Assembly: GCA_046292385.1 (NCBI GenBank)
Contig: JBKBRF010000001.1
Coordinates: 5,996-31,204, forward strand
Direction: 5' to 3'
Source of the DNA: Armatimonadota bacterium
Lineage (GTDB): Bacteria > Armatimonadota > SYMT01
DNA length: 25,209 nt
Below the pieces are notes generated by a model. That model saw nothing but the letters and a program-made list of their open reading frames with translations, was not told where the DNA came from and ran no database searches. Below are positions 3,030-22,783 of the stretch, piece by piece; the first letter of the stretch is position 1, and each line of letters starts with the position of its first letter. Position numbers and translations under genes: made by a program.

Positions 3030-3135
3030 GCGCTCCCTGCAGGATCGGCTGGCCGCCATGCTGCCGGCATGGCGGCCGGTTGCTCGAGCTCGACGCCGGA
3101 AGTCCGTCCGAAGCGTCTCCCTCACCGGGCCTGGA

Positions 3136-3783
3136 TCAGCGCTCCTGGAGGACGTGCTTGACCAGCGACGCCCGGGTGCGCGGCTCGCAGCCAAGCTTGT
3201 TCAGGGAGCGCTCCAGCGCGCGCTTCACCGCAGTCTCCGTGACCGGCTCGTTCCACTCGGCGGAGAGCGCTCTGGCGACCTGGCGCAGGGTCAGAGAGGT
3301 GTCCATCACCTTCAACACCACGCCTTTCTCGCGCTCCGTGAGGCGGGCCCGCCGCGCCACGCGCTCGACCGCCTCGGCAGCGCTCGCGGCGGAGCTCGTG
3401 CCCGCCTCGTCCGGCGACTTTTGTAAATAGGCGCGGCGGACGGTTGCCGCCAGCTCTTCCGGCGCACAGTTCTTGCTCAGGCAGCCCCATGCCCCCGCCA
3501 GGCGTCCGAGCTCCACCAGGTTCTCATGCGCGGTGAGGACGATGACCCGCGAGTGCGGAGAGCATACCCGGATCCGGGTGGTGGCCTGGGCGCCGCTGAG
3601 GTGGGGCATGTCGAGGTCCATCAGGATGACGTCCGGATGCAGCTCGGAGGCGATCTGAACCGCCTCCCGGCCATCCGCCGCCTGCCCGACGATGCAGAAG
3701 TCCGGCTCGGCACTGAGCTGCCGGGCGAGGAGCGAGCGGAGCAGCCGGGTATCGTCGGCAATCACAATGCGGATCGGCGGCAT
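3136..3783 (-). CDS. NarL/LuxR-family response regulator (REC + atypical LuxR-type HTH)
   Basis: MPPIRIVIADD...VILMDLDMP...VLTA...LSK receiver; C-terminal LTEREK...LRQVARAL...TAVKRALERSLNKLG. Start ATG 3783. Confidence 0.9.
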   Translation of the reverse strand: MPPIRIVIADDTRLLRSLLARQLSAEPDFCIVGQAADGREAVQIASELHPDVILMDLDMPHLSGAQATTRIRVCSPHSRVIVLTAHENLVELGRLAGAWGCLSKNCAPEELAATVRRAYLQKSPDEAGTSSAASAAEAVERVARRARLTEREKGVVLKVMDTSLTLRQVARALSAEWNEPVTETAVKRALERSLNKLGCEPRTRASLVKHVLQER

Positions 3784-4151
3784 CTTCGGATCGGCCTGGT
3801 CTCTCCGTTGCTGGACTACGCCAGAGGCAGGAGCCGGCGGCTGGGGCCGCGGGGGAGCGAGGCGCACCACACATGGTCGCGGTACTTCCACAGCAGAGTT
3901 GCGTGCGCGAGTGCATGGTGTGCAATGACCCGCAGGTCCGCCCCGCCGGGCCCGCGCGTCTAGAATCGCTCGTAGAGCTGAGAGCCGGAGCTGCTCGGGG
4001 AAAGTAGCAGAGGCGGCTTGGACCCGAAAGCAGACGCCACAGGCCGAGCCGCCGCCGAACGAAACGCGCGGGCGACGGCCCGGATCCGGATCACGGGCGA
4101 GGATCTGTGCGCACCCTCGGCGAATGACACGCCAGGAGAACTCAGCGCACT

Positions 4152-9335: not shown

Positions 9336-10778
9336 CTAGGCCAGCAGCGATTTCAGGAGCTGCGCCTCGTGCACGTCGGTCAGCCGCTCGTCGCGGTTGC
9401 CATGGCGGAAGGTGACCCGCTTGTGGTCCAGGCCCAGCAGGTGGAGCAGCGTGCCGTGGAGATCGGCGACGGTGACCACGTCCTGCACGGCGCGGTAGCC
9501 GAACTCGTCGGTGGCGCCGTGGGTGACGCCGCCCTTGATGCCGCCGCCCGCCAGCCACATGCTGAAGCCGCGCTTGTGGTGATCGCGCCCGTCCTTCCCT
9601 TCCGCAAACGGAGTGCGGCCGAACTCTCCGGTCCAGACCACCAGCGTCTCGTCCAGCAGGCCGCGCTGCTTCAGGTCCGCCAGCAGGCCGGCGACCGGCA
9701 GATCGGTCTGGCGGCAGAGCGAGCGGTGCCCCTCGGTGTTGTTGGCGTGGGTGTCCCACGGCTGCCCGGCCATCATCACCTGGACGAAGCGGACCCCCCG
9801 CTCCACCAGCCGCCGCGCCATCAGGCACTGCCGGCCGTAGGTCGCCGTCTCCCCCTGGTCCAGACCGTAGAGCGCGCGGGTGGTCGCCGGCTCTTTCGAG
9901 AGGTCGAGGGCGTCGGTCGCCGCGAGCTGCATCCGCGCCGCCAGCTCGAAGTTGGCGATCCGCGCCTCCAGCTCCAGGTTGTCTTCCCGGCCCTTACGGT
10001 GCTCCCGGTTCAGCTTCTGGAGCAGCTCCAGGCGGGCGCCGGCGGCGTCGCGCGGGACCTTCGGCTCCAGGTTCAGGATCGGCGAGGTATCGGTAGCGCG
10101 GACCGGCATCCCCTGGTAGAGCGGGGGCATCCAGCCGCTCGACCAGTTCCGCGCGCCGTCGACCGGCAGCCCGCCGGGGTTCAGCAGTGCCACGTAGGCG
10201 GGGAGGTCCTGGTTCTCGGTCCCGAGCGCGTAGGTGATCCAGCTCCCCATCGTGGGCCGGCCGGCGACCGGCGAGCCGCTGTGCATGTGGCAGCACGCCT
10301 GCTCGTGGTTCTCGTGCTCCGAGACCATGGAGCGGATGACGGAGACGCTGTCCGCGTGCTTCGCCAGCTCCGGCAGTAGCTCGGAAAGCTCCAGTCCGGA
10401 CTGCCCGTGGCGCGCGAACTGGAACGGGGTGCCGAGCCAGACGCCGGTCTTCTTCGGGTCGACGTCGTTCACGAACCCCTCGCCCGGCTTCTCCCCCGCG
10501 CGGCGGTTCAGCTCCGGCTTCGGGTCGAAGAGGTCGACCTGGCTCGGCCCGCCGTTCTGGAAGAGATAGATCACCCGCTTCGCCTTCGGCGCATAGTGCG
10601 GGGGCCGCGGCGCCATCGGGTTCGCCCCCTCCGCCGGCGGAGCCTCGGCGCGCGCCTCCTCCGCCAGGAGCGCGGTTAACGCCAGCGCGCTCGCCCCCAT
10701 TCCGAGTCGGGAGAAGAGCTCCCGCCGGGAGAGCTGCCGCAGCAGCCGCGCGCGCTGTCTCAGGTCAAATTCACTCAT
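9336..10778 (-). CDS. DUF1501 domain protein (Tat-like leader)
   Basis: LSRRELF leader; AKRVIYLFQNGGPSQVDLFDPKP; ARRLVERGVRFVQV; WDTH; VVWTGEFGRTP; GRDHH; LLGLDH. Start at ATG 10778 with GAGGA RBS (alternative 10790). Confidence 0.93.
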   Translation of the reverse strand: MSEFDLRQRARLLRQLSRRELFSRLGMGASALALTALLAEEARAEAPPAEGANPMAPRPPHYAPKAKRVIYLFQNGGPSQVDLFDPKPELNRRAGEKPGEGFVNDVDPKKTGVWLGTPFQFARHGQSGLELSELLPELAKHADSVSVIRSMVSEHENHEQACCHMHSGSPVAGRPTMGSWITYALGTENQDLPAYVALLNPGGLPVDGARNWSSGWMPPLYQGMPVRATDTSPILNLEPKVPRDAAGARLELLQKLNREHRKGREDNLELEARIANFELAARMQLAATDALDLSKEPATTRALYGLDQGETATYGRQCLMARRLVERGVRFVQVMMAGQPWDTHANNTEGHRSLCRQTDLPVAGLLADLKQRGLLDETLVVWTGEFGRTPFAEGKDGRDHHKRGFSMWLAGGGIKGGVTHGATDEFGYRAVQDVVTVADLHGTLLHLLGLDHKRVTFRHGNRDERLTDVHEAQLLKSLLA

Positions 10779-10786
10779 CGTTTTCC

Positions 10787-11767
10787 TCATACTCGCCCGG
10801 AGGCCGACCTGGCGAGGCCGTCCAGCGCCGAAAGGCTGTCCTCGATCCGCTTCAGATCGGCGCCGAGCATCACCAGCTCCGGGTGGAACTCCGAGACCAG
10901 GGCGCGAGTCCAGCACTTCATGGCGCGGTGGACCAGCACCTCTTCCAGCGCCGTCTCGTACTCGCGAGAAGGGGCCGCGGGGGCCGCGCCTTCGATTCGG
11001 ATCAGCTCGGCGAGCCGCGTCTGGTACCGCTCCATCTCGGCACAGATCCGCTGCATCGCGACCGCGAATTCATACCGGGTGAGAGTCTTCCTGCCGGCAA
11101 AAGTACCGTCCGGATAGCCGGTGAAGATCCCGGCCGCCCCGAGCTCGTTGACGATCTCGTAGGCGGGATGGCCGACGTCCTGCGCGACGACCAGCGGAAC
11201 GTCCTCGAAGGCGCTCGGAGGCTTCTCGGCGGACGCCAGTGCGTGCGGCCTTGCGAGCGCGGCAAGCCGTTCCACCCTAGCCGTCCACGCCGCCAGCTCC
11301 TGCTGCCGGCCGTCCGGCTCCGCCTTCATCAGCTTCAGGACCGGCGTGGACTGATCCAACAGCACGCGGTGCCATCCGAGCACCGCCCGCAGCCGCCCCG
11401 GCTCTGCGGAGCAGGCGAGCAGCTTCTCCCGCACCCCACCCGGCTTGCTCCCCGCCTGGAGCGAGGTGACGACCCTCCGCAGATGGTCGTGCATCCCCTG
11501 CGCTACCTGCGCCACCTGGTGACGCGTCCAGCCGCCATCGTAGCTCCCCAGAAGCGCAGCCCCCAGCGGCAGTCCGCACCCCAAGTCGAGGTACGACGCC
11601 ACCTGGAGGAGCAGCCGCGACTCCGGGTGCGCTTCGAACGCATTCCCGGCTGCCGGGGCGGGTCGGGTCAGCTCCCGGGGCAGGAGCGGCTCGGCGCGCG
11701 CAGCGGCCCCGGGCATCGCCAGCCCGAGAAGGGTCCACCGCAGCACGTCGCGCCGGGAGCTTGTCAT
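10787..11767 (-). CDS. Tat-exported protein with one S-layer homology (SLH) domain
   Basis: MTSSRRDVLRW...AARA twin-arginine signal; SLH motif FEDVP...HPAYEIVNELGAAGIFTGYPDGTFAGRKTLTRYEFAV (about 11046-11209). Confidence 0.8.
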   Translation of the reverse strand: MTSSRRDVLRWTLLGLAMPGAAARAEPLLPRELTRPAPAAGNAFEAHPESRLLLQVASYLDLGCGLPLGAALLGSYDGGWTRHQVAQVAQGMHDHLRRVVTSLQAGSKPGGVREKLLACSAEPGRLRAVLGWHRVLLDQSTPVLKLMKAEPDGRQQELAAWTARVERLAALARPHALASAEKPPSAFEDVPLVVAQDVGHPAYEIVNELGAAGIFTGYPDGTFAGRKTLTRYEFAVAMQRICAEMERYQTRLAELIRIEGAAPAAPSREYETALEEVLVHRAMKCWTRALVSEFHPELVMLGADLKRIEDSLSALDGLARSASGRV

Positions 11768-11784: not shown

Positions 11785-14529
11785 TCAATCGACGTAGAGG
11801 AACTCGTTCGCGCTCAGGAGCGCCTGGCAGAGATCGGCCCAGGTCAGCTGCCGCGCTTCCGCTGCTGCTTTCCCCGCCGCGCGGTAGCGCGCCTCCTGCT
11901 CCGGCAGGAAATCGAGCACCGCGGCCAGCTCGGCCGGCGACGGCCCGCGGCCGAGCGCGAGACGGTAGGCGCGGTCGGCCGCGGCCCGGACGCCCTGCTC
12001 CGGCGGCGCTTCTTTCAGCACGCGCGCGGCGAAGTTCCCGGACTGCGCCGTGATGAAGGTGCTGTTCATCTGCGCCAGCGCCTGCGTGGCGGTGGTGGAG
12101 ACGACCCGCCGCGTGCAGTTCGTCTCCATTACCGGCGCGTCGAAGGTGTTGAGCAGTGTTACCGGCATGGAGCGGCGCACCAGCAGGTAGATCGAGCGCC
12201 GGCCGGGGCCCGCTTCTCCCGCGGCGATGATCTCGCCGGTCGCTACCGTCTCCGTCCCCACCGGCTCGCCGAATAGCTTCAGGTCGAGCGTCCCCGCCGC
12301 GGCGAGCACCGCGTCCCGCACCGCCTCCGCCTCCAGCCGTCGCGCTCGCTGCCGCCAGAGCAGCCGGTTCTCCGGATCTTTCGCCGCCGCCTCCGGCCGC
12401 AGCGCGGACGCCTGCCGGTAGACCGCGGAGGTGACGATGAGGCGGTGGAGCGCTTTGATCGACCAGCCGAATCCACTCGACGGAGAGACAGAGAGACGGA
12501 GTGACGGAGAGAGCTGTGCCCGCGTGGCAGGCTGCGCTTCTCGGGAAGCGGCGGTTCGGACTCGCACTATCCCTCTGTCTCTCCGTCCCTCTGTCCCTGA
12601 AGTCCCTCTGTCACTCTGTCTCTCTGTCGCTACCGCATCAGGGGTAACCGGCGCCGTGAAAACAGAAGCGAGAAAGTCGAGAAGCTCCGGGTGCGAGGGC
12701 CGATCTCCGGAGCGGCCGAAGTTGTCGAGGGAGCGGACGATCCCCTCCCCGAAGTGGTGAGCCCAGACGCGGTTCACCAGCACGCGGGCTGTCAGCGGGT
12801 GGTCCGGACGGGTCAGCCACTGCGCCAGGGCGGTCCGGCGGCCGGTGGTGGCGGCATCCGCGGCGGGAGTGGGCAGGGTAAAGCCGCCGGTCGCCTCCGC
12901 CAGGATGGCCGGGATGCCCGGCTCCACCGGATCGCCGGGGCGCAGCCAATCGCCGCGGTTCAGCAGGGGGGTCGGCGGCGGGGTGGCGTCCTGGTCGTAG
13001 AAGGCGCGGATCTCCGGGTAGACGATCCGCTTCTTCGCCTCCGCCTCCCGGGCGGCGCGGATCTCTCCCTGCGCCTTCGCAAACTCCGGGTAGGCGGCGG
13101 CGAGCTCTTCCGCCGTCGGCGCGGCTATAGACTTGTTCTTCTCGATGAGCGCCTTCTGCTCCGGGGTGCGCTTCGCCTCTTCGACCGCCAGCGCGGCGCG
13201 GAGGGCGGACTGCTCCTCCACCGGGAGCGACGGCAGCCTCGCCTCCAGGTGGCGGGCGGCGTGGTCCCGCAGCAGCGCCGCGCTCTTCTTCTCCAGCTCC
13301 GCGAGCGCGGCATCGACCGCGGCGTTCACCCGCTTCGCCTCTTCCTGCTGGGCGGCGGTGGCGGCGACGATCTGCCGCCGGTAGGTGGGGAGCAGCGCGC
13401 CGCGAGGACGAACGGCGCCCATGAAGAGCGCCTGCAGGCGGTAGTAGTCTTTCTGGGAGATCGGCTCGTACTTGTGGTCGTGACACTGCGCGCACTGGAC
13501 CGTGAGCCCCAGCACCGTGGTGGAGACGATCCGCTGCGTATCGTGCAGCATCCGGTACTGGTACTCGCCGAACTGGTGCGGGTTGAAGTCGTCCCGGGTG
13601 GCGTCGACCGCCGTCCGCAGGAAGCCGGTGGCGGTGACCGCCTCCAGCACCTCCGGCGTGAACTCCTTCGCGGTGCGGTAGCCGGAGAGCTCGTCCCCCG
13701 CCAGCTGCTCGCGCAGGAACCGGTCGTACGGCTTGTCCGCGTTGAAGCTGCGGATCACGTAGTCGCGGTAGCGCCACGCGTTCGGCCGGAGGCGGTCCTC
13801 CTGCAGCACGCCTTCGCTGTCCGCATAGCCGGCGGTATCGAGCCAGTGCCGCGCCCAGCGCTCTCCGTAGTGGGGAGAGGCGAGGAGCGTCTCGACCAGC
13901 CGCTCGTAGGCGTCCGGGGCGGGGTCACTCACGAACGTCTCCACCTGCTCCGGCGTGGGGGGCAGGCCGAGCAGGTCGAAGTAGAGCCGGCGGACCAGCG
14001 TCCGGCGGTCCGCTTCCGGCGAGAGGCCGAGCCCCTGCCGCTCCAGCTCCGCCAGGACGAAGCGGTCAATCGGGTTCCGCACCCGGTCTTCCGCGCGGAC
14101 CTTCGGCGCCGCCGGCCGCGCCGGTGGAATGAAGGCCCAGTGGCCCTGCTCCGGACCCTTGCCGGGCGCGCCGGCGCGGATCCAGTCCGCGACCTTCGCC
14201 AGCTCCGCGGGAGAAAACTTGCCGCCGCCCTTCGGCATGCGGCCGTCCGCCAGCATCTGGTAGAGCAGACTCTGTCCCGGGTCGCGGCCCGCCACCGAGG
14301 GGCCGGAGGCGCCGCCTTCCAGCACGTCGCCCCGCTGCCGGAGGTCGAGGCCCGCGGCCGGGTTCACCGCGCCGTGGCAGCCGATGCAGCGCGCCTGGAA
14401 GAGCGGCAGGATGTCGCGCTCGTAAGACGGCGCCGCCTTGCCGGTCGCGGCGAGCGCCAGGACCGGCGCGCCCGCTCCCAGCGCGATCGCGACCCCCGCC
14501 GGAAGCCACCTTCGGATCAGATCTCGCAC
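11785..14529 (-). CDS. Planctomycete-type cytochrome c + DUF1549 (PSCyt2) + DUF1553 (PSD1) protein
   Basis: Signal peptide; CIGCH heme motif; HWAF, NPIDRF, SPHYGERWARHWLD, CAQCHDHK; PLTARVLVNRVW, HPELLDFLA, RRLEAEAVRD, RRSIYL, EFLYVD. Start taken at GTG 14529 (AGGAG upstream). Confidence 0.93.
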   Translation of the reverse strand: MRDLIRRWLPAGVAIALGAGAPVLALAATGKAAPSYERDILPLFQARCIGCHGAVNPAAGLDLRQRGDVLEGGASGPSVAGRDPGQSLLYQMLADGRMPKGGGKFSPAELAKVADWIRAGAPGKGPEQGHWAFIPPARPAAPKVRAEDRVRNPIDRFVLAELERQGLGLSPEADRRTLVRRLYFDLLGLPPTPEQVETFVSDPAPDAYERLVETLLASPHYGERWARHWLDTAGYADSEGVLQEDRLRPNAWRYRDYVIRSFNADKPYDRFLREQLAGDELSGYRTAKEFTPEVLEAVTATGFLRTAVDATRDDFNPHQFGEYQYRMLHDTQRIVSTTVLGLTVQCAQCHDHKYEPISQKDYYRLQALFMGAVRPRGALLPTYRRQIVAATAAQQEEAKRVNAAVDAALAELEKKSAALLRDHAARHLEARLPSLPVEEQSALRAALAVEEAKRTPEQKALIEKNKSIAAPTAEELAAAYPEFAKAQGEIRAAREAEAKKRIVYPEIRAFYDQDATPPPTPLLNRGDWLRPGDPVEPGIPAILAEATGGFTLPTPAADAATTGRRTALAQWLTRPDHPLTARVLVNRVWAHHFGEGIVRSLDNFGRSGDRPSHPELLDFLASVFTAPVTPDAVATERQSDRGTSGTEGRRDRGIVRVRTAASREAQPATRAQLSPSLRLSVSPSSGFGWSIKALHRLIVTSAVYRQASALRPEAAAKDPENRLLWRQRARRLEAEAVRDAVLAAAGTLDLKLFGEPVGTETVATGEIIAAGEAGPGRRSIYLLVRRSMPVTLLNTFDAPVMETNCTRRVVSTTATQALAQMNSTFITAQSGNFAARVLKEAPPEQGVRAAADRAYRLALGRGPSPAELAAVLDFLPEQEARYRAAGKAAAEARQLTWADLCQALLSANEFLYVD
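12479..12628. repeat. Inverted octamer tandem arrays (GACRGAGN) inserted in frame within the DUF1553 domain
   Basis: 12479-12513 gacggaga gacagaga gacggagt gacggaga; 12570-12628 tccctctg tctctccg tccctctg tccctgaag tccctctg tcactctg tctctctg. The span is 150 bp. Confidence 0.85.
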
Positions 14530-14791
14530 CGCCACTCCTACTCGCCACGCAGAAAAACCGTTCACGCGCCCGCAGGGACCCGCGGAGGATTGGACACCCC
14601 TCCCGCGGGCCGGTTGCGGCGCCTTCTCCCCCGCGGTCGCTGCAAAAGCGTGGTCGCGGGAGCTGTATCGGCGCAGCAGCGGGTCCGGGCGCTCCCCGCC
14701 CAGCTTTCTCTCTTGCCAGGCAGGGAGTCGCTCCTACTCCTACGAACCGAGCTAATACGCGGGTTAGTCATAGAAAGGATAGGGGGTGGGA

Positions 14792-16062: not shown

Positions 16063-17538
16063 TTATCCCAGGCTGCCGGTAAAGCGCGCCGCTTCCTTGC
16101 GGTAGTCGTGGAACGGGTTGCGGAGGTCGAGGTAGCGGTCCCGGTCCAGGTAGATGCTGTCCCAGTCGATCACGTAGCGGGGCGACCGCTGCTCCAGGAG
16201 CTTGCCGATCACCTCGCCGCGGGCGGCGGCGCGGGTATCGGCGGGTGGGGTAGTGCGGGCCGCCTCGATCTTCTCCTCATCCAGGACGCGCAGCATCTGC
16301 CCGGCTTCTACCAGTCCGTGGAAGAGGCCTCGCTCCGGGTCGATGTTGTGGTACTCCAGGTCGAGGCTCTGCATCACGTCGTCGTGCCAGCCCGCGCCTT
16401 CCGACTGCCGGTACAGCTCCAGCAGCTTCCGCTTCGCCACCCAGTCGACCCGGTCATCCAGCAGCATCGGGTTCGTCTCCAGGCCGGTGAGCGCGTAGTC
16501 CCACTCCCGCAGCACCCAGTCGGTCTGCTCGTCCCGGCCCGCCAGGTAGCGCTGCGCCGTCTCCAGGTAGAGCCGCTGGAGGTCGACCGCCGGCATGGTA
16601 CGGCCGTCCGCCATCTTGACCGGCCACTGCCAGGACGGGTCGCGGGAGACGGAGCGGAGCGTCTTGATCGGGTCGCTCACCCGCACCTCTTCCGGGATCA
16701 GGCTGTCTTCCAGCAGGTCGAGGACCAGCGAGGTGGTGCCGATCTTCATCACCGTGGCCCACTCGCTCATGTTCGCCTCCCCGAAGAGGAGATGGAGGCG
16801 GTGCATGTCGCTGAAGTTGTAGTAGCTGTCCCACTTGGGGTTGATGATGGCACGGTTGAACCGGACCTTGGAGGCGACGCTCTTGAGGATGTGGTCCGCG
16901 CGCTGGGAGAGCTGGAACTCCACGCTCCGGTCGATCTCGACGGCGTAGAAGTTGTGGACCCAGATGTAGTCGACCTCGTGCTCGCCGATCTCCATCACGT
17001 TGTTGCGGAAATCGGTGCGGTTCAGCCGGTGCCCGCCCACGCGGCCGACCCCGGCGTAGATCTGGCGGGTCACCAGGAACGGCAGCAGCAGCGCCACGGC
17101 GTCCCGGAAGAACTCTTCGTTCAGGCGGGCCAGGTAGTTCTCATGGCAGCCGAAGGTGTGACCGCCGAAGTGGTCGACGCTGTTGTTGTGGAAGCTGACC
17201 TGCCCGTCCAGCCCCAGGTCCCGCAGCGCCTGCTGGAGGATGCGGTGCCCGGCCCGCTCGTGCGCGGCGACGTCGAAGAAGCTGCTGCACTCAGCGGTGG
17301 CGTACTCCTCGTGGTCGCCGACCGCGTCGATGTAGAGGCGCCCGCCGTTGCGCAGGAAGCCCCCGGCCCGCGCCGGCTCGAAGGTGTAGTCGCGCGCGTG
17401 GAGATCGATCAGGCCGAGCTTCTGCTCCAGGAAGACGTGGTTCTTGACCGCCTCCACCATCCGCTCCGGCTCGCCCAGCTCCGGGTCGTGCACCAGACAG
17501 CCGAACTCGGTCTCGATCCCAAAGATGCGTCGTTCCAT
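16063..17538 (-). CDS. pafA: Pup/UBact--protein ligase (PafA family)
   Basis: RRIFGIETEFG; FLRNGGRLYIDAVGDHEEYATAEC; FGCHENY; LPFLVTRQIYAGVG; QLSQRADHI; RLHLLFGEANMSE; DWVAKRKL; LDLEYH. It lacks the Dop loop. Confidence 0.9.
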   Translation of the reverse strand: MERRIFGIETEFGCLVHDPELGEPERMVEAVKNHVFLEQKLGLIDLHARDYTFEPARAGGFLRNGGRLYIDAVGDHEEYATAECSSFFDVAAHERAGHRILQQALRDLGLDGQVSFHNNSVDHFGGHTFGCHENYLARLNEEFFRDAVALLLPFLVTRQIYAGVGRVGGHRLNRTDFRNNVMEIGEHEVDYIWVHNFYAVEIDRSVEFQLSQRADHILKSVASKVRFNRAIINPKWDSYYNFSDMHRLHLLFGEANMSEWATVMKIGTTSLVLDLLEDSLIPEEVRVSDPIKTLRSVSRDPSWQWPVKMADGRTMPAVDLQRLYLETAQRYLAGRDEQTDWVLREWDYALTGLETNPMLLDDRVDWVAKRKLLELYRQSEGAGWHDDVMQSLDLEYHNIDPERGLFHGLVEAGQMLRVLDEEKIEAARTTPPADTRAAARGEVIGKLLEQRSPRYVIDWDSIYLDRDRYLDLRNPFHDYRKEAARFTGSLG

Positions 17539-17573
17539 GTACTACCTTGCGTGAAGCCGGTGCCGCTGGGTGC

Positions 17574-18131
17574 CTACCGGAACAGCCGGTCGAGTTCGAT
17601 CTTCAGGCCGGGAAAGAGTGGGGTGGTAAGGACCTCGCCGCGCGCTAAGATCCCCGTCTCCGCGTAGGCGCCGTCCCGAAGCTCCAGCGTGGCGACCGTC
17701 TTTCGGGACGGATCCAGGATCCAGTAGTGGGGGATCCCCGCGCGGGCATATTCCTCCCGCTTCACTACCAGGTCGCGCGCCGCATCCTCATCCGAGATGA
17801 CTTCTACCACCAGCGTCGGTACCCCCGTGACACGGTTCGCGTCAAGATCCACCCGCTTTGCCGCATCCTCTCCAGAGAAGTAGGCAAAGTCCGGGCGGCG
17901 CCCGGAGTAGGGGACCGTCGGGATGTCGAGCTCCACGGCCCAGAAACCGCGCGGGTCGTACTGCTCCAGGTAGGGATCCAGCAGCGAGAAGATCTTTCCG
18001 CCGGTCCAGCCATGCCGCGGCTTCGGGGACACGAGCTCCTCCAGTTTTCCGTTCACGAGCTCGTATCGGCCCTCGAGGTCGAGTGCAGTGAACTCCTCAA
18101 ACGTCATCAAGCGCGTTGCTGCTTCGGCCAT
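17574..18131 (-). CDS. Uma2/DUF820 family PD-(D/E)xK endonuclease-like protein
   Basis: MTFEEF...RYELVNGKL...PKPRHG...RRPDFAY...PTLVVEVIS...KREEYARAGIPHYWILDP...LFPGL. Confidence 0.92.
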   Translation of the reverse strand: MAEAATRLMTFEEFTALDLEGRYELVNGKLEELVSPKPRHGWTGGKIFSLLDPYLEQYDPRGFWAVELDIPTVPYSGRRPDFAYFSGEDAAKRVDLDANRVTGVPTLVVEVISDEDAARDLVVKREEYARAGIPHYWILDPSRKTVATLELRDGAYAETGILARGEVLTTPLFPGLKIELDRLFR

Positions 18132-18198
18132 CGCTCTACCTATTCCGGCGCCCGATCCCCAACAGTCCGGACTGAGGACGCTGCCTATCGGTCCCGAA

Positions 18199-18341
18199 TT
18201 TGGAGTGCGGTAGCTTGCTACCGCTTTCGCCGACGATTACGTCTCCAGCCCGCCGGCGTCTGCGAAAGCTTGCTTTCGCCCCTATACGGTTCGCATGGAA
18301 GGGAGGCTCCTCAAAGCGGAAGCAAGCTTCCGCACTCCAAA
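18199..18341. repeat. REP-like composite palindrome (TGGAGTGCGG...CCGCACTCCA type)
   Basis: 29-bp inverted arms at 18199-18227 and 18313-18341 (27/29 match), each internally palindromic. A third core gcgaaagcttgctttcgc lies at 18262-18279. Confidence 0.85.
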
Positions 18342-18391
18342 AACCGTCCCGAAGTGCCGATCCCGTGCTACGGAAACTTCCCTGGCGCAGC

Positions 18392-19189
18392 CTACGACCG
18401 GTACTCCGCCGTCACGCCGTCCAGCTCCTCCGCGGTGAGCAGCCGGAACTTGCGCTCGCGGGAGGTGCGGCGGTCGAGGAAGCCGACTTCCAGCTTGCCT
18501 TCCGCCAGCTCCGCGCGGAGCACGTCGGCGGCGGAGCGGGCGGCACGGGTCTCCTCTTCCTCTGCTTCATCAGTCCGGCCGCGGCCGGCAAAGCCCCGCC
18601 GCTCCGCGTGCAGCCGGCCGGTGCCCCACGCCTCCAGCGCCAGGCGGAGGGCGGAGGTGCGGTCGGTCGCGCCGTCGATCCCGGCGTGCAGCACCTCCAG
18701 CATCCGGTTCTCCGCCTCCAGCGTGCCGCCCGCCACGGAGTAGCGGTTCTCCGACCGGAACTCGCCGTCGAAGCCGAGGGCGTAGAACTGGTCCTCGTCC
18801 TGGCGCGCTCCCATCTCCGCGAAGAGCCCCCGGAAGATGAGAGGAGCCGTGAACGGGTCCGCGAAGGCACGCTTCAGGGCGGGGGAGAGGACGGAGCCAA
18901 CCAGCCGGTGCGCCGTCACGTCGTCCGGGCTGCGCTGGAAGCCCTCCTGGTGCGCGAAGTCGATCGAGGCGTTGCGCATCGTCTCCACGTCGGACGGATG
19001 TCCGATGCCGCTGAAGATCAGGCGGTCGTACACCTCGTAGACCTTCCGCTGCGCGCGGTGGACGCTCAGGAGCAGCACGCCGTCCGGGATACCGAGCCCC
19101 ACCACGGGGCTCCCGTCCCGGAGTCGCTCCTCGATGTACTCGGTCCGCGTCTGGATCGACTGGTTCCAATCGTAGGGGGTCAGGGACAT
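18392..19189 (-). CDS. prcA: 20S proteasome alpha subunit
   Basis: GSPVVGL...DGVLL...RKVYEVYDRLIFSGIG...FYALGFDGEF...LEVGFLDR...RKFRLL aligns by eye to actinobacterial PrcA; operon position after prcB. Confidence 0.9.
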   Translation of the reverse strand: MSLTPYDWNQSIQTRTEYIEERLRDGSPVVGLGIPDGVLLLSVHRAQRKVYEVYDRLIFSGIGHPSDVETMRNASIDFAHQEGFQRSPDDVTAHRLVGSVLSPALKRAFADPFTAPLIFRGLFAEMGARQDEDQFYALGFDGEFRSENRYSVAGGTLEAENRMLEVLHAGIDGATDRTSALRLALEAWGTGRLHAERRGFAGRGRTDEAEEEETRAARSAADVLRAELAEGKLEVGFLDRRTSRERKFRLLTAEELDGVTAEYRS

Positions 19190-19196
19190 TTTCTTT

Positions 19197-19290
19197 AGGG
19201 GTCAGGGGCCAAGTGTCAGGGGCCAGCGTTCCGAACCCTGACACCAGCGGTAGTCAACCTGCAACTTGCAACCTGCCAACCTGCTAACCG
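19197..19290. repeat. Heptamer-array element between prcB and prcA
   Basis: aggggtc aggggcc aagtgtc aggggcc, core gttccgaaccc...gtc, then caacctg caacttg caacctg ccaacctg ctaacc. Confidence 0.8.
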
Positions 19291-19294
19291 AGCA

Positions 19295-20122
19295 TTACGC
19301 GATAGGTCGGGCCAGGCCGGCGTCTTCGCGCGGGTGGATGCGCGCCACGATCTCCCGCATCTGCTCCGCGGTCACGTCGAAGATACCGTCCTGGCTCACG
19401 CCGCGGGCGACCGGCAGCACCTTGGCGAAGCCGCCGGTGGCGGCGTCGAGATCGGCGGCGATGTCGAGGAGCACCAGGCATTCCTGCAGCGCTTCCTCCA
19501 GCGACATCTCCCGGAACGGCTTGCGAGTGCGGACGATGTAGTCGAACGCGCCGCGGATCCGCTCGCTGCCGGAGCCGGCGGCGCCGAAGTCGGTCGTCTC
19601 GAAGCGGGCGCCCATGCCGTCGTAGAAGAAGATGCGACCCTCGTTGGTGCGGCGGTCGTAGGCGCTCACGATCGGGATGAAGGCGCCGATCCCCTGGAGC
19701 GCCATCGGCAGGTTGTTCGCGATGGCGCGGGAGACTTCGCTCACCTTCCCGTCCAGGCTCATCTCCTGCAGCTCGCGCCGCTCGTAGTACTTGAAGGCGT
19801 GCTTCAGGTAGCGCACGATCTCCAGGGCGCGTGCGAACGAGCCGGAGATGGCGATGAGCGTGCTGTCGTCCAGCGCCAGGACCTTCTCCGCGCGGTCGAA
19901 CATCACCCCCATGCCGGCGGTGGCGCGCCGGTCGCCGACGTTCAGCACGCCGTCGCGGTACTTCACCGCGATCACGGTGGTGCCGTGGGTGTCGAGCTCG
20001 CGCGCCGGCTCCGCGCCCCGGACGCCGCCGGGATGCGAGAAAGGCGCGTCCGCGACGCGCCCACCCTGGGACGGGAGCCCGTAGGCGAGCTCCCAGAAGC
20101 TGCCGGGTTGTGACTGGATCAT
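19295..20122 (-). CDS. prcB: 20S proteasome beta subunit (47-aa propeptide)
   Basis: HG|TTVIAVKY processing site; Thr1, Asp17 (GDRRAT) and Lys33 present at exact spacing; AAGSGS and DAATGG motifs. Confidence 0.93.
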   Translation of the reverse strand: MIQSQPGSFWELAYGLPSQGGRVADAPFSHPGGVRGAEPARELDTHGTTVIAVKYRDGVLNVGDRRATAGMGVMFDRAEKVLALDDSTLIAISGSFARALEIVRYLKHAFKYYERRELQEMSLDGKVSEVSRAIANNLPMALQGIGAFIPIVSAYDRRTNEGRIFFYDGMGARFETTDFGAAGSGSERIRGAFDYIVRTRKPFREMSLEEALQECLVLLDIAADLDAATGGFAKVLPVARGVSQDGIFDVTAEQMREIVARIHPREDAGLARPIA

Positions 20123-20174
20123 CGTGGTGTGTCAAACCCTCCGTAAACGGTAGGTCCTGCTCCGCTCTGGTTCC

Positions 20175-20259
20175 AAGTTAGCAGGTTGCAGGTTGCAGGT
20201 TCCGAACCCCGCCTGCCGGGGCGTCCAACCTGTAACCTGCCAACTTGCCGACCTGCAAC
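20175..20259. repeat. Inverted CAGGTTG/CAACCTG heptamer-array element between ubact and prcB
   Basis: aagttag caggttg caggttg caggtt - ccgaaccccgcctgccggggcgtc - caacctg taacctg ccaacttg ccgacctg caac. Confidence 0.85.
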
Positions 20260-20285
20260 AACGCTTTCCCGACCAATGACGATAG

Positions 20286-20477
20286 CTATTCGCCGCTGCG
20301 CTGGCGGTAGCGCTTGGCCTGCTCCGGGTCGACGCGCCGCATCCGCTTGAGCAGGTCGCTCGGGTCGGGACGCTTTACGTCCGGCGGCTTGGGGCCGCTG
20401 TCATCCGCCGGCTTGGTAAACGGCTCGGCGGGACCGCCGGGCCGCTGGATTCGCTCTTCACCCTTGATCGGGAACAT
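20286..20477 (-). CDS. ubact: Ubiquitin-like protein modifier UBact (Pup functional analogue)
   Basis: 63 aa, Pro-rich and probably disordered, with C-terminus LLKRMRRVDPEQAKRYRQRSGE (R[S/T]G[E/Q] signature); GAGGAG RBS; located between dop and prcB. Confidence 0.88.
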   Translation of the reverse strand: MFPIKGEERIQRPGGPAEPFTKPADDSGPKPPDVKRPDPSDLLKRMRRVDPEQAKRYRQRSGE

Positions 20478-22023
20478 CGCTCTCTCCTCGCGGCGCCCCA
20501 GAGGCGGGTGCCGCGTCTGACGTTGTTTTAACGGCGGCGGGAGCCGGAAGCAAATCGCCTGCCTCTGCCGGCAGCCCGGCGCCCGGTTCTACGGGAAGCC
20601 GCACGCGCCGGCTCTCGCCCCCGTGCCGAAGCTCCACCTGCCCCCAGCTGATGCGAGTGATATCCCGCGAGTAGCGCCGTACCAGTTCTCCCCGGAGCCC
20701 GCCGCGGGTAGTCCGCGGCCCCTCTGCCAGCGCCCGGCAGATATCGTCCTCTTCCGTCAGGCGGACCATCTGCCCGCCTTCTTCCAGCGCGTAGTAGAGC
20801 CCTTCCGCCGGGTCGACGTTGTGGTACTCCAGGTCGAGGCTCCGGATCACGTCGCTCTCCCACCAGAGACCCTCCGCCTCGATGTAGGTCTCCAGCAGAC
20901 GCCGCTTGGCGACCCAATCGAGCCGGTCTTCCAGCCGGTAGACGTCGGTCTCCAGGTCGTCCAGCACGCGCTCCCACTCCCGCAGCGTCCAGTCCGCGTC
21001 GGCGCTGGAGCCGGCGAGCAGCTTCCGCGCGTCCTGCAGGTAGATCCGCTGGAGATCAGTGGCGCGCATGGTGCGGCCGTCCTCCAGCTCCAGCACCCAC
21101 CGCATGGAGGGATCGCGGGAGACGATCTTGATCGCGTCGACCGGGTTCCGCAGCCGGAAGAGCGGCTCCCAACCCGCTTCCACCAGGGAGAGGACCAGGC
21201 TTGTCGTTCCCGCCTTCAGGGCGGTGGCAAACTCGGAGAGGTTGGCGTCCCCGCAGATCACGTGCAGCCGGCGATAGCGGCGCGAGTCGGCGTGGGCCTC
21301 GTCGCGGGTATTGAAGATCGGCCGCTTCGCCAGGGTGTCGACGCTGGCGATCTCCGTGAAGAAGTCGGCGCGCTGGGAGAGCTGGAACTGGCAGCTCTCG
21401 CGCAGCGGCCCGGCGGTCTCCACGCCGGTTTTGCCCGCCCCCACGTAGAGCAAGCGGGTCACCAGGAACGGCAGCATCCCGTAGAGCAGGCGCTCGAACG
21501 GCACGGCGCGGTCGCAGAGGTACGCCTCGTGCGTGCCGTAGCTCATGCCGTGGAAGTCGGTGTTGTTCTTGTAGAGGCGGACTTCTCGCCCGGTCTCCCT
21601 CGCGCGCAGCCGGGCGCACTCCAGTACCACCCGCTCCCCGGCGCGGTCGTGCGCCACCAGCTCCCGCAGCGTCCGGCACTCCGGCGTGGCGTACTCGGGG
21701 TGGCCGTGGTCGTTGTAGAGCCGGGCGCCGTTGGCGAGGGCGCGGTCGGAGCGCTGCTGCTCGCCCGTCAGGTGGCTGGCGGAGCCCTGGCGATCGAGCT
21801 GAGCGTCCTGCGTGTCATAGTTGAGGTGGTCGACCTGAAACCCGCGCATGTCGCAGCGAGGGTCCTCCGCGCGGTAGTCCCACGGTCCGGCCCAGGCACG
21901 CGGGTAGGCGCGCACCAGCAGGCGCGACTCGTCCATCAGGTCGCCCGCGCCCCGGCCTTCCACCCAGATCCCGTATTCGGTCTCGATCCCGAACAGCCGC
22001 TCGCCGGCTTCCGAGCGTCGCAT
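20458..22023 (-). CDS. dop: Depupylase/deamidase Dop family
   Basis: RLFGIETEYG; Dop loop WDYRAEDPRCDMRGF; LANGARLYNDHGHPEYATPEC; LYKNNTD..G.SYGTHE; RPIFNTRDEAHAD; YRRLHVICGDANLSE; GGAGG RBS. Confidence 0.9.
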   Translation of the reverse strand: MRRSEAGERLFGIETEYGIWVEGRGAGDLMDESRLLVRAYPRAWAGPWDYRAEDPRCDMRGFQVDHLNYDTQDAQLDRQGSASHLTGEQQRSDRALANGARLYNDHGHPEYATPECRTLRELVAHDRAGERVVLECARLRARETGREVRLYKNNTDFHGMSYGTHEAYLCDRAVPFERLLYGMLPFLVTRLLYVGAGKTGVETAGPLRESCQFQLSQRADFFTEIASVDTLAKRPIFNTRDEAHADSRRYRRLHVICGDANLSEFATALKAGTTSLVLSLVEAGWEPLFRLRNPVDAIKIVSRDPSMRWVLELEDGRTMRATDLQRIYLQDARKLLAGSSADADWTLREWERVLDDLETDVYRLEDRLDWVAKRRLLETYIEAEGLWWESDVIRSLDLEYHNVDPAEGLYYALEEGGQMVRLTEEDDICRALAEGPRTTRGGLRGELVRRYSRDITRISWGQVELRHGGESRRVRLPVEPGAGLPAEAGDLLPAPAAVKTTSDAAPASGAPRGESDVPDQG

Positions 22024-22051: not shown

Positions 22052-22126
22052 GGTTAGCAGGTTGCAGGTTGACACCCGGGAGGCGGGGGTTCAAAACCTG
22101 TAACCTGTAACCTGCTAACCTGCAAC
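22052..22126. repeat. Inverted CAGGTTG/TAACCTG heptamer-array element between the sirC-like gene and dop
   Basis: ggttag caggttg caggttg - acacccgggaggcgggggttcaa - aacctg taacctg taacctg ctaacctg caac. The core resembles the reverse complement of the 20175-20259 core. Confidence 0.85.
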
Positions 22127-22783
22127 GCCTTCCCGGATCAGGCGCAGCTCTTCGGCGATAATCCGCTCCGCCAGCTCGCGGGCGGCCTCCGCGCGCCCCT
22201 CGCGGAGGAGCAGGAGCGCCTCGCTGTAGACGATCCGCTCGAAGATCCGCTGCCGCTCCGGCTGGGTGAGTCCTTCCAGCTCCTTCACCCGCGGACGCAG
22301 CTCCGCCAGCAGCTCCGCCAGCTCCCCGTACTCCGGCCCCAGCCAGCCCTCCAGCTCCCGCCGCACCCGCCGCGCAAACGCCGGGGCGGTGCCGTGCGTG
22401 AAGATCGAGACGGTGAGGGGCCCCCGCTCCACCTTGGAGGCGAAGATGTAGCTGCAGTGGGGCGGATCGTCGCACACGTTGACGAGCTGTCCCCGCGCGC
22501 TCGCCTCTTCGTAGACGGCGGCGTTCGTCTCCGGCTCGTTCGTCGCCACCGCCACCAGGAACGCGCCTTCGGCGTCGCCCTCCGCGTACCGCCGCTCGCG
22601 CAGCGTGATCCGTCCCTGCGCCGCCAGTTCCCGCAGCGGCGGGCTCACCTCCGGGCTGATCACGGTCACCACCGCGCCGCAGGCGAGCAGCTCCGGCACG
22701 CGGGCGGTCGCCACGCTGCCGGCGCCGACCACCACCACGGGCCGGCCTTCCAGGTTGAGACAGATCGGTAGATAGCGGGTCAT
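22115..22783 (-). CDS. Precorrin-2 dehydrogenase/sirohydrochlorin ferrochelatase (SirC/Met8p/CysG N-terminal type)
   Basis: YLPICLNLEGRPVVVVGAGSVA (Rossmann motif), VTVISPE, LVNVCDDPPHCSY, GPLTVSIFTHGTAPAFARRVR. There is no methyltransferase domain. Confidence 0.9.
   Translation of the reverse strand: MTRYLPICLNLEGRPVVVVGAGSVATARVPELLACGAVVTVISPEVSPPLRELAAQGRITLRERRYAEGDAEGAFLVAVATNEPETNAAVYEEASARGQLVNVCDDPPHCSYIFASKVERGPLTVSIFTHGTAPAFARRVRRELEGWLGPEYGELAELLAELRPRVKELEGLTQPERQRIFERIVYSEALLLLREGRAEAARELAERIIAEELRLIREGVAG

Follow-up and report, generated by a model that had tools for sequence, protein, structure and literature searches.

Two modifiers, Pup and UBact, are named as prokaryotic protein tags (PMC11354881; this and all other papers given by PMC number are cited from excerpts). 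The actinobacterial Pup-proteasome system and the UBact-proteasome clusters of Gram-negative phyla have homologous enzymes, a homologous unfoldase and 20S core and the same gene order, which in the UBact clusters is dop-ubact-prcB-prcA-pafA; the two tags have no detectable sequence similarity, UBact ending in R-S-G-[EQ] and Pup in GG[EQ]. 'Pup orthologs' were described in 2008 by Iyer, Burroughs and Aravind (PMC2588565) for Verrucomicrobia, Nitrospirae and Planctomycetes: these proteins are small, end in G[EQ] and, like UBact, are encoded next to proteasome genes and to a single PafA paralogue or a pair of them; the excerpted text treats them as Pup and does not mention Armatimonadota. Here we analyse a locus on a 25,209-nucleotide stretch of an Armatimonadota genome (contig JBKBRF010000001.1; the whole stretch is referred to as the window, its G+C content is about 70%). 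Positions 16063-22023 of the window are six consecutive open reading frames (ORFs), all open and all on the minus strand, and an earlier reading of the bare sequence (the original prediction) had taken them for a UBact-type conjugation and 20S proteasome operon, dop-ubact-prcB-prcA-uma2-pafA. The name UBact was reportedly introduced in 2017, by Lehmann, Udasin, Livneh and Ciechanover (BBRC 483:946, as listed in PMC12751074), and R-[ST]-G-[EQ], following the original prediction, is taken as its defining C-terminus.

Profile matches, occurrence across the phylum and gene order bear out this call, and all six genes lie, on the minus strand, where they had been placed. The main family matches span E-values of 1e-21 to 1e-154 (Pfam, NCBIfam), the five functional genes are intact and their order is conserved across Armatimonadota and Verrucomicrobiota. 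We put the probability that the locus is a UBact-type conjugation and 20S proteasome system, the Gram-negative counterpart of actinobacterial pupylation, at roughly 85%.

The modifier, its gene cluster and its distribution

The modifier gene lies between the Dop-like gene and prcB and encodes, as originally described, a 63-amino-acid protein ending in RSGE (...KRYRQRSGE). Its start overlaps the stop of the Dop-like gene by 20 nucleotides, with GGAGAGAG upstream of the ATG. The protein scores well over the curated cut-offs of both UBact models (PF20513, 74.9 against 27.8 bits; NF033388, 78.6 against 35 bits) and both profiles are matched through to their last position. The hidden Markov model searches suggested with the original prediction thus returned UBact, Pup_ligase and Proteasome matches and no Pup match: on the modifier, Pfam gave only the UBact family at E-values up to 10, and the UBact profile found no match among all PDB chains, likewise at E-values up to 10. 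HMMER shows no similarity between UBact and Pup, with which a distant homology of the two sequences would still be compatible. The original prediction had depended on homologues with a conserved R[S/T]G[E/Q] end beside prcB, and such homologues exist: YRQRSG[EQ] is the C-terminus in 30/30 UBact loci from relatives. A UBact alignment has 16 invariant columns, mostly within residues 39-63. Of the 29 distinct sequences of the phylum, 21 end in Glu and eight in Gln; one of the eight is from the family to which the window belongs (L030).

PF20513 is present in 38 of 61 sampled Armatimonadota genomes, counting that of the window (35/55 of the high-quality ones), and in 0/14 control genomes. A scan of one genome per species gave at least 597 pattern matches, at least 539 of them confirmed as relatives by tblastn; the best 80 of these at least 539 relatives, from Armatimonadota and Verrucomicrobiota, were kept as related loci. 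The order dop-ubact-prcB-prcA is found in 58 of the 80. Fifty of them contain a Dop-like gene with 4 kb or more of sequence upstream, and in 45 of these 50 a homologue of the unfoldase Mpa lies upstream of dop (within 300 nucleotides in 32 cases). From these counts, mpa-dop-ubact-prcB-prcA-pafA emerges as the canonical operon. Compared with the UBact clusters of Gram-negative phyla, the window lacks mpa, which is on another contig, and has an Uma2-family gene before pafA; these departures are two trivial local rearrangements. The genes and segments concerned are, in window coordinates:

20458..22023, minus strand: Dop-like enzyme, 521 amino acids; Pup_ligase 516 bits, NCBIfam Dop 434.1 against PafA 350.0
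21745..21903, minus strand: Dop-loop of the Dop-like enzyme, about residues 41-93, including W48; aligned to the Dop-loop of 4b0r
20286..20477, minus strand: UBact modifier, 63 amino acids, ends RSGE; PF20513 74.9 bits, NF033388 78.6 bits
20289..20363, minus strand: UBact residues 39-63, predicted contact with the PafA-like enzyme; from the interface of the complex model
19295..20122, minus strand: 20S beta subunit with a 47-amino-acid propeptide; Pfam Proteasome 93.2 bits
19979-19981, minus strand: Thr1 codon (T48) of the beta subunit; mature solved chains begin there
18392..19189, minus strand: 20S alpha subunit, 265 amino acids, containing an acidic insert and extended by a conserved C-terminal segment; TIGR03691 87.5 bits, E 8.6e-25
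17574..18131, minus strand: Uma2-family gene between prcA and the PafA-like gene; PF05685 118.4 bits
16063..17538, minus strand: PafA-like ligase, 491 amino acids, no Dop-loop; Pup_ligase 441.8 bits, NCBIfam PafA 319.7 against Dop 300.3
16924..17034, minus strand: lineage-specific insert of the PafA-like enzyme, about residues 169-205; unaligned to Dop and PafA structures alike
16819..16842, minus strand: NPKWDSYY replacing NTRDEPHA in the PafA-like enzyme (K235 for Arg, Y239 for His)
22115-22783: gene with a siroheme-synthase N-terminal domain, upstream of dop where mpa is expected

The Uma2 gene had been listed as part of the operon, and this did not hold up. Uma2 (PF05685) has 20 matches in the genome, on many contigs, and is found at the junction of prcA and the PafA-like gene in only 2/80 related loci, both of the window's family (one of them, L042/L055, with two tandem copies). 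Being dispersed in 20 copies and placed here only in close kin, it is a passenger insertion rather than a component of the system.

Four Armatimonadota loci (L047, L049, L050 and L051) have only dop-ubact-prcB clustered, with or without prcA; within the 20 kb fetched for each, a PafA-like gene was not found.

The two enzymes and their predicted tag-binding groove

The Dop-like enzyme matches Pfam Pup_ligase with an E-value of 1.2e-154 and the solved Dop structure 4b0r with an E-value of 2.2e-106 over residues 9-494. The marks by which a Dop paralogue had been recognised, the Dop-loop and the motif DHGHPEY, are both present: W48 of the loop aligns with W47 of 4b0r, whose role is described in PMC8599861, and the catalytic Asp (D105) lies within NDHGHPEY with no insertion after it. 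The loop is found in 13/13 Dop-like and 0/9 PafA-like proteins aligned. The enzyme retains NTRDEAHAD, and NTRDE[PA]H is found in 62 of 64 Dop-like proteins; the excerpt of PMC8599861 assigns to the Arg of the NTRDEPH motif the holding of the catalytic phosphate and to the His a stacking contact. A Thr is aligned on T217 of Dop, which is described as hydrogen-bonding the last residue of the tag (PMC8599861).

The second enzyme had been named PafA. It has no Dop-loop and shows PafA-type states at positions from the set that discriminates Dop from PafA (Hecht et al. 2020, PMC7947786), which were mapped by hand on alignments with solved structures: an insertion and a Gly after the catalytic Asp (DAVGDH, D-VGSH in 4b0t), A80, A82, H216, S223 and D458. 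The catalytic D71 lies within YIDAVGDHEEY, while the alpha-loop has mostly states of neither the Dop nor the PafA type. To this extent the assignment as PafA stands; the TIGR03686 cut-off for PafA is missed, and orthology with actinobacterial PafA is not established by the tree and the approximately unbiased (AU) test described below. The enzyme has the sequence feature YIDAVGDHEEYATAEC and is unlike both canonical enzymes in an extra segment (about residues 169-205), in NPKWDSYY, in V225/R226 and in GEAN for GDAN, changes that are invariant in 9/9 aligned Armatimonadota proteins. Among 51 full-length PafA-like proteins of related loci the spacing at the insert is 40 residues in 40 (Armatimonadota type) and 20 residues in 11 (Verrucomicrobiota type). 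The sequence NPK[WQR][DE] is found in 37 of the 51 and NARDEP in 11, and in the remaining three (L064, L094, L106) the pattern matched the wrong place or nothing, so that they were counted as neither type. The 11 Verrucomicrobiota proteins keep NARDEPLAD and GDSN and have no insertion after the Asp, the pattern YLDMGHIE[YF] being matched in 10/11.

The PafA-UBact complex, which the original prediction had suggested modelling, was modelled from the PafA-like enzyme (9-row alignment), UBact residues 26-63 (29-row alignment), ATP and two Mg. The interface score ipSAE was 0.90, 0.89 and 0.89, against 0.02 for the best of three controls, the runs share at least 89% of contacts, and the predicted local distance difference test (pLDDT) of the partner was at least 72. 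In a benchmark, 116/157 solved complexes and 2/215 mismatched pairs reached that mark, figures that are only a rough guide here because of the custom alignments and ligands; since PafA-Pup and Dop-Pup complexes are among the solved structures, likeness instead of binding may account for the pass. With this qualification, the model supports binding of UBact to the PafA-like enzyme. On UBact, the modelled interface consists of residues 39, 41-43 and 45-63, with Glu63 predicted in the active site; on the enzyme it consists of the active-site strands (E11, D71, H76, H132, N233) and a groove of residues 117-132 and 372-412. The predicted groove would be of the same kind as Pup occupies on PafA and Dop. 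The likeness to actinobacterial Pup, a disordered tag with a Glu or Gln end as UBact appears to be, would thus extend to a homologous groove and a terminal residue in the active site.

We propose the following mechanism. UBact would be disordered and proline-rich, with its last ~25 residues folding as two short basic helices in the acidic groove of the PafA-like enzyme (117-132, 372-412), which would bring Glu63 next to Asp71, the catalytic residue, and to the GIETE strand. The PafA-like enzyme would use ATP to phosphorylate the side-chain carboxylate of this Glu and a substrate lysine would attack, giving an isopeptide bond. The Dop-like enzyme, with its Dop-loop Trp, its NTRDEAH motif and a similar acidic groove, would remove the tag, and in relatives it would also deamidate Gln-ending tags. 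That no deamidation is needed, as had been proposed, should be correct for the tag of the window because it already ends in Glu; it does not extend to all kin, as eight of 29 UBact sequences of the phylum end in Gln and the Dop-like enzyme would therefore be needed as a deamidase in those relatives.

The contrast that had been drawn between a basic UBact and an acidic Pup is real. The net charge of the last 30 residues is +4 to +7 in 29/29 UBact sequences, against -6 to -10 in Pup (Pup ORFs of 36 Pup-type loci from Actinomycetota and KSB3, ending in Q[KR]GG[EQ]). The grooves are inverted too: at 30 modelled groove positions, the net charge is -4 to -9 in 24/24 enzymes linked to UBact (12 of each kind, Dop-like and PafA-like, drawn from both phyla), and the same positions have +1 to +3 in the seven proteins that pass the NCBIfam PafA cut-off and +1 to +5 in the 11 that pass the Dop cut-off. 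A basic tag is paired with acidic grooves on both enzymes, the reverse of Pup systems. The different ligase-binding surface that had been expected from the basic helix is therefore found as an inverted electrostatic match; the predicted site itself is the homologous groove and not another surface. On the whole, the mechanistic proposals of the original prediction are reasonable, and both the complex model with its controls and the charge counts now back them.

Proteasome core, unfoldase and alternative explanations

The catalytic residues reported for the beta subunit were confirmed by alignment to solved chains: Thr1 is T48, Asp17 is D64 and Lys33 is K80, and the mature solved chains align from T48. 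The Pfam Proteasome cut-off is passed. The alpha subunit has no Pfam match, but was confirmed by TIGR03691 (E 8.6e-25) and by alignment to solved Mycobacterium tuberculosis PrcA chains (E 2.7e-12), on which its K49 falls on K52 of PrcA (counted by hand); the role of this alpha-ring pocket lysine with activator tails is taken from PMC12288473. The C-terminal third of the alpha subunit has an acidic run (EEEE) followed by L-E-[VA]-x-x-L-[ED]-R-x-x-x-R-E-x-[KR]-F-R-L-L, conserved in 10/10 aligned proteins; this extension aligns weakly with M. tuberculosis PrcA. In the proposed pathway, an Mpa-type ATPase, whose gene is on contig 54, would unfold tagged proteins, and the PrcAB 20S core with its Thr1 protease would degrade them.

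Several observations weigh against reading the locus as a complete and active tagging and degradation system. No conjugate, substrate, activity or biochemical study of any UBact system was found in the literature searched. All NCBIfam equivalog cut-offs are missed: Dop (TIGR03688) with 434.1 against 492.3 bits, PafA (TIGR03686) with 319.7 against 551.3 bits (the PafA-like enzyme also stays below the Dop cut-off, with 300.3 bits), alpha (TIGR03691) with 87.5 against 139 bits, beta (TIGR03690) with 149.5 against 191.9 bits and Mpa (TIGR03689) with 452.9 against 504.75 bits. Among solved structures, the PafA-like enzyme scores higher with Dop (257 bits) than with Corynebacterium glutamicum PafA (194.5 bits). 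It has V225/R226 where the canonical enzymes have two conserved alpha-loop threonines, and K235 at the place of Arg207 of canonical PafA. For the C. glutamicum enzyme, R207 is described as the main substrate-recognising residue, its exchange (R207A) abolishing pupylation of FabD and not the reaction with free lysine, and R137, R207, R218, R442 and K444 as a basic rim that guides substrates (PMC10465538); the corresponding residues here, counted by hand on the alignment, are L139, K235, H246, S461 and Y463, which keep the positive charge at one of five positions. mpa is not upstream of the window's dop. The sole strong homologue in the genome is on contig 54 (1297-3027 of locus L001, plus strand) among unrelated genes, and its product ends in ...RRSIV, with no GQYL or HbYX tyrosine. 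Contigs from RNA libraries, discussed below, are compatible with transcription and nothing more, as the libraries may hold DNA.

The deviations of the PafA-like enzyme could mean that it serves as a second hydrolase, or as a paralogue that binds UBact without catalysis, and that the Dop-like enzyme performs both reactions. Its higher score with solved Dop, its grouping with UBact-type Dop-like enzymes in the tree (see below) and the replacement of the NTRDEPH motif and of both alpha-loop threonines would fit. Against this, 9/9 PafA-like proteins share an invariant GIETE strand, catalytic Asp, H-x-E-Y, GCHENY and RLH-x-x-x-G-E-x-N, the replacements are functionally conservative (Lys for the Arg that contacts phosphate or substrate, Tyr for the stacking His), and the Dop-loop, described as favouring hydrolysis (PMC7947786, PMC8599861), is absent here and kept by the Dop-like enzyme. 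We consider a PafA-like protein that is not a ligase very improbable, and read it from its sequence as a putative active ligase whose phosphate and substrate site has been rebuilt conservatively and whose rules of substrate choice probably differ from those of canonical PafA.

Tagging could also be uncoupled from the proteasome, UBact being mainly a reversible regulatory mark or the 20S core being fed by another route. The place of the Mpa homologue on contig 54, beside unrelated genes, speaks for this, as does its tail: GQYL, required for gate opening in mycobacteria according to PMC12288473, is the end of Mpa in 17/17 Pup-type loci, whereas UBact-type Mpa ends in VI, II or VV in 52 of 53 full-length homologues and has a Tyr within the last four residues in 0/53. 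However, in the 45 of 50 related loci with mpa upstream of dop, this gene lies in the prcBA operon and has the same [VI][VI] tail, which is therefore the normal state of the proteasome-linked gene; the alpha-ring lysine is kept (K49), and UBact always lies between dop and prcB. We regard uncoupled tagging as improbable. Lacking a GQYL tail, the UBact-type unfoldase must then dock differently, although the alpha-ring lysine is retained. The contig-54 protein is itself a plausible unfoldase: the next best score in the genome is 146.6 bits, its best PDB match is M. tuberculosis Mpa (E 1.6e-97), and it combines two proteasomal-ATPase OB domains with an AAA module (PF17758, PF16450, PF00004) and, judged by eye, an N-terminal coiled coil. 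Among close kin, the distance from mpa to the downstream dop is 3.8 kb or 2.0 kb, or the locus has no mpa at all, which indicates that the operon was loosened step by step in the window's lineage. That the cluster is a decaying remnant broken by a mobile Uma2 gene, as the insertion between prcA and the PafA-like gene and the unlinked mpa might suggest, is hardly credible: all ORFs are full length with intact catalytic residues, close kin that share the Uma2 insertion retain every gene at 54-82% identity, and short contigs of three RNA libraries from two studies match parts of five genes. These contigs (238-469 nucleotides, at least 95% identity) contain parts of the PafA-like gene, prcA, prcB and dop, and the whole UBact ORF with the 3' end of dop. 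Of the three metatranscriptome libraries in question, X10 and X13 belong to one study and X19 belongs to a second; being assembled, the contigs carry no transcript ends, strands or levels, so that uncovered parts are uninformative. Two joints in X19 were disregarded, as each rests on one contig with a short side (21 and 25 letters).

A scan for promoters and terminators gave 0 promoter-like sites and six terminator-like sites against 3.3 expected, none of them usefully placed, so that transcription units are not inferable from it. Elsewhere in the window, and unrelated to the UBact operon, are adjacent genes with DUF1501 and PSCyt1/PSCyt2/PSD1 (DUF1549/DUF1553) domains at 9336-10916 and 11785-14565 (both minus strand), a pair of a kind that we take to be typical of Planctomycetes-like genomes, and a hybrid histidine kinase (DUF4118, GAF, HisKA, HATPase, receiver, Hpt) at 162-3194 (minus strand) with an adjoining response regulator at 3136-3891 (minus strand).

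Phylogeny of the enzyme pair and comparison with Pup systems

A search of 1.84 billion representative proteins with the PafA-like enzyme gave 5221 matches at E<=0.001; of the best 150 of these 5221, 106 are 430-600 amino acids long, and 92 of the 106 were scanned with NCBIfam. A tree of 75 rows was built from the two enzymes of the window, the Dop-like and PafA-like proteins of six Armatimonadota and five Verrucomicrobiota loci and 51 representatives, with fragments and the remaining representatives left out; a subset of 49 rows (529 columns) was analysed with IQ-TREE under LG+C20+F+G4 by posterior mean site frequencies (PMSF). The groups were named after the first tree had been seen. All trees join the UBact-type PafA-like with the UBact-type Dop-like enzymes on one side and canonical PafA with canonical Dop on the other, and the branch that joins the two canonical enzymes has an ultrafast bootstrap (UFBoot) of 96 and an approximate likelihood ratio (SH-aLRT) support of 95. 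Co-evolution of the grooves was considered as the cause of this topology and rejected: when the groove segments (PafA-like residues 115-133 and 365-415) were removed, the topology stayed, though weaker (SH-aLRT 86, quick search). In the AU test, a tree with UBact-type PafA-like enzymes and canonical PafA as one clade was not rejected (difference in log-likelihood 12.27, p 0.131).

It is possible, if doubtful, that the UBact hydrolase and ligase pair arose by a duplication of its own, separate from that of actinobacterial Dop and PafA. On this tentative view, a tag ligase would have evolved twice from a Dop-like ancestor by loss of the Dop-loop, in Armatimonadota also with the insertion after the Asp. 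Since this insertion is absent from the PafA-like proteins of Verrucomicrobiota, it arose within the UBact-type clade, which fits convergence. The recognition interfaces might likewise, as a speculative part of the same scenario, have been rewired in parallel: the charge of tag and groove, the [IV][IV] tail of the unfoldase and the ligase rim without its arginines. According to Hecht et al. (PMC7947786), Dop and PafA of Nitrospirae fall inside the respective actinobacterial clusters; named Nitrospirota are not represented in the tree sample.

The loci of Candidatus Moduliflexus/KSB3 (L132-L140) provide a comparison outside Actinobacteria. Like the UBact type, they are non-actinobacterial and have a six-gene operon, mpa-dop-tag-prcB-prcA-pafA. 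Unlike the window, they encode an acidic Pup ending in QRGG[EQ] (eight of nine distinct tails end in Glu) and an unfoldase with a GQYL tail, and their PafA (P0025) falls within the canonical PafA clade, unlike the PafA-like enzyme of the window. The KSB3 loci are transferred Pup systems. Pup-type and UBact-type systems are thus distinct packages, both found in Gram-negative phyla.

The UBact copy of the window is an intact example of an already described gene cluster, and as a system it is ordinary. By itself the locus adds little: the UBact family has curated models in Pfam and NCBIfam and at least 539 relatives are known from the scan. Specialists might be surprised only by the coordinated rewiring of the interfaces and by a ligase of possibly separate origin. 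If the independent duplication were true, it would be a natural replicate of the transition from hydrolase to ligase that Hecht et al. rebuilt by mutagenesis (PMC7947786). The locus is a well-preserved test case for the pathway, and the contrasts with pupylation, namely a basic tag with acidic grooves, an unfoldase tail of [IV][IV] without the tyrosine of GQYL and a Lys in place of the Arg that selects substrates, each give a concrete mutational hypothesis.

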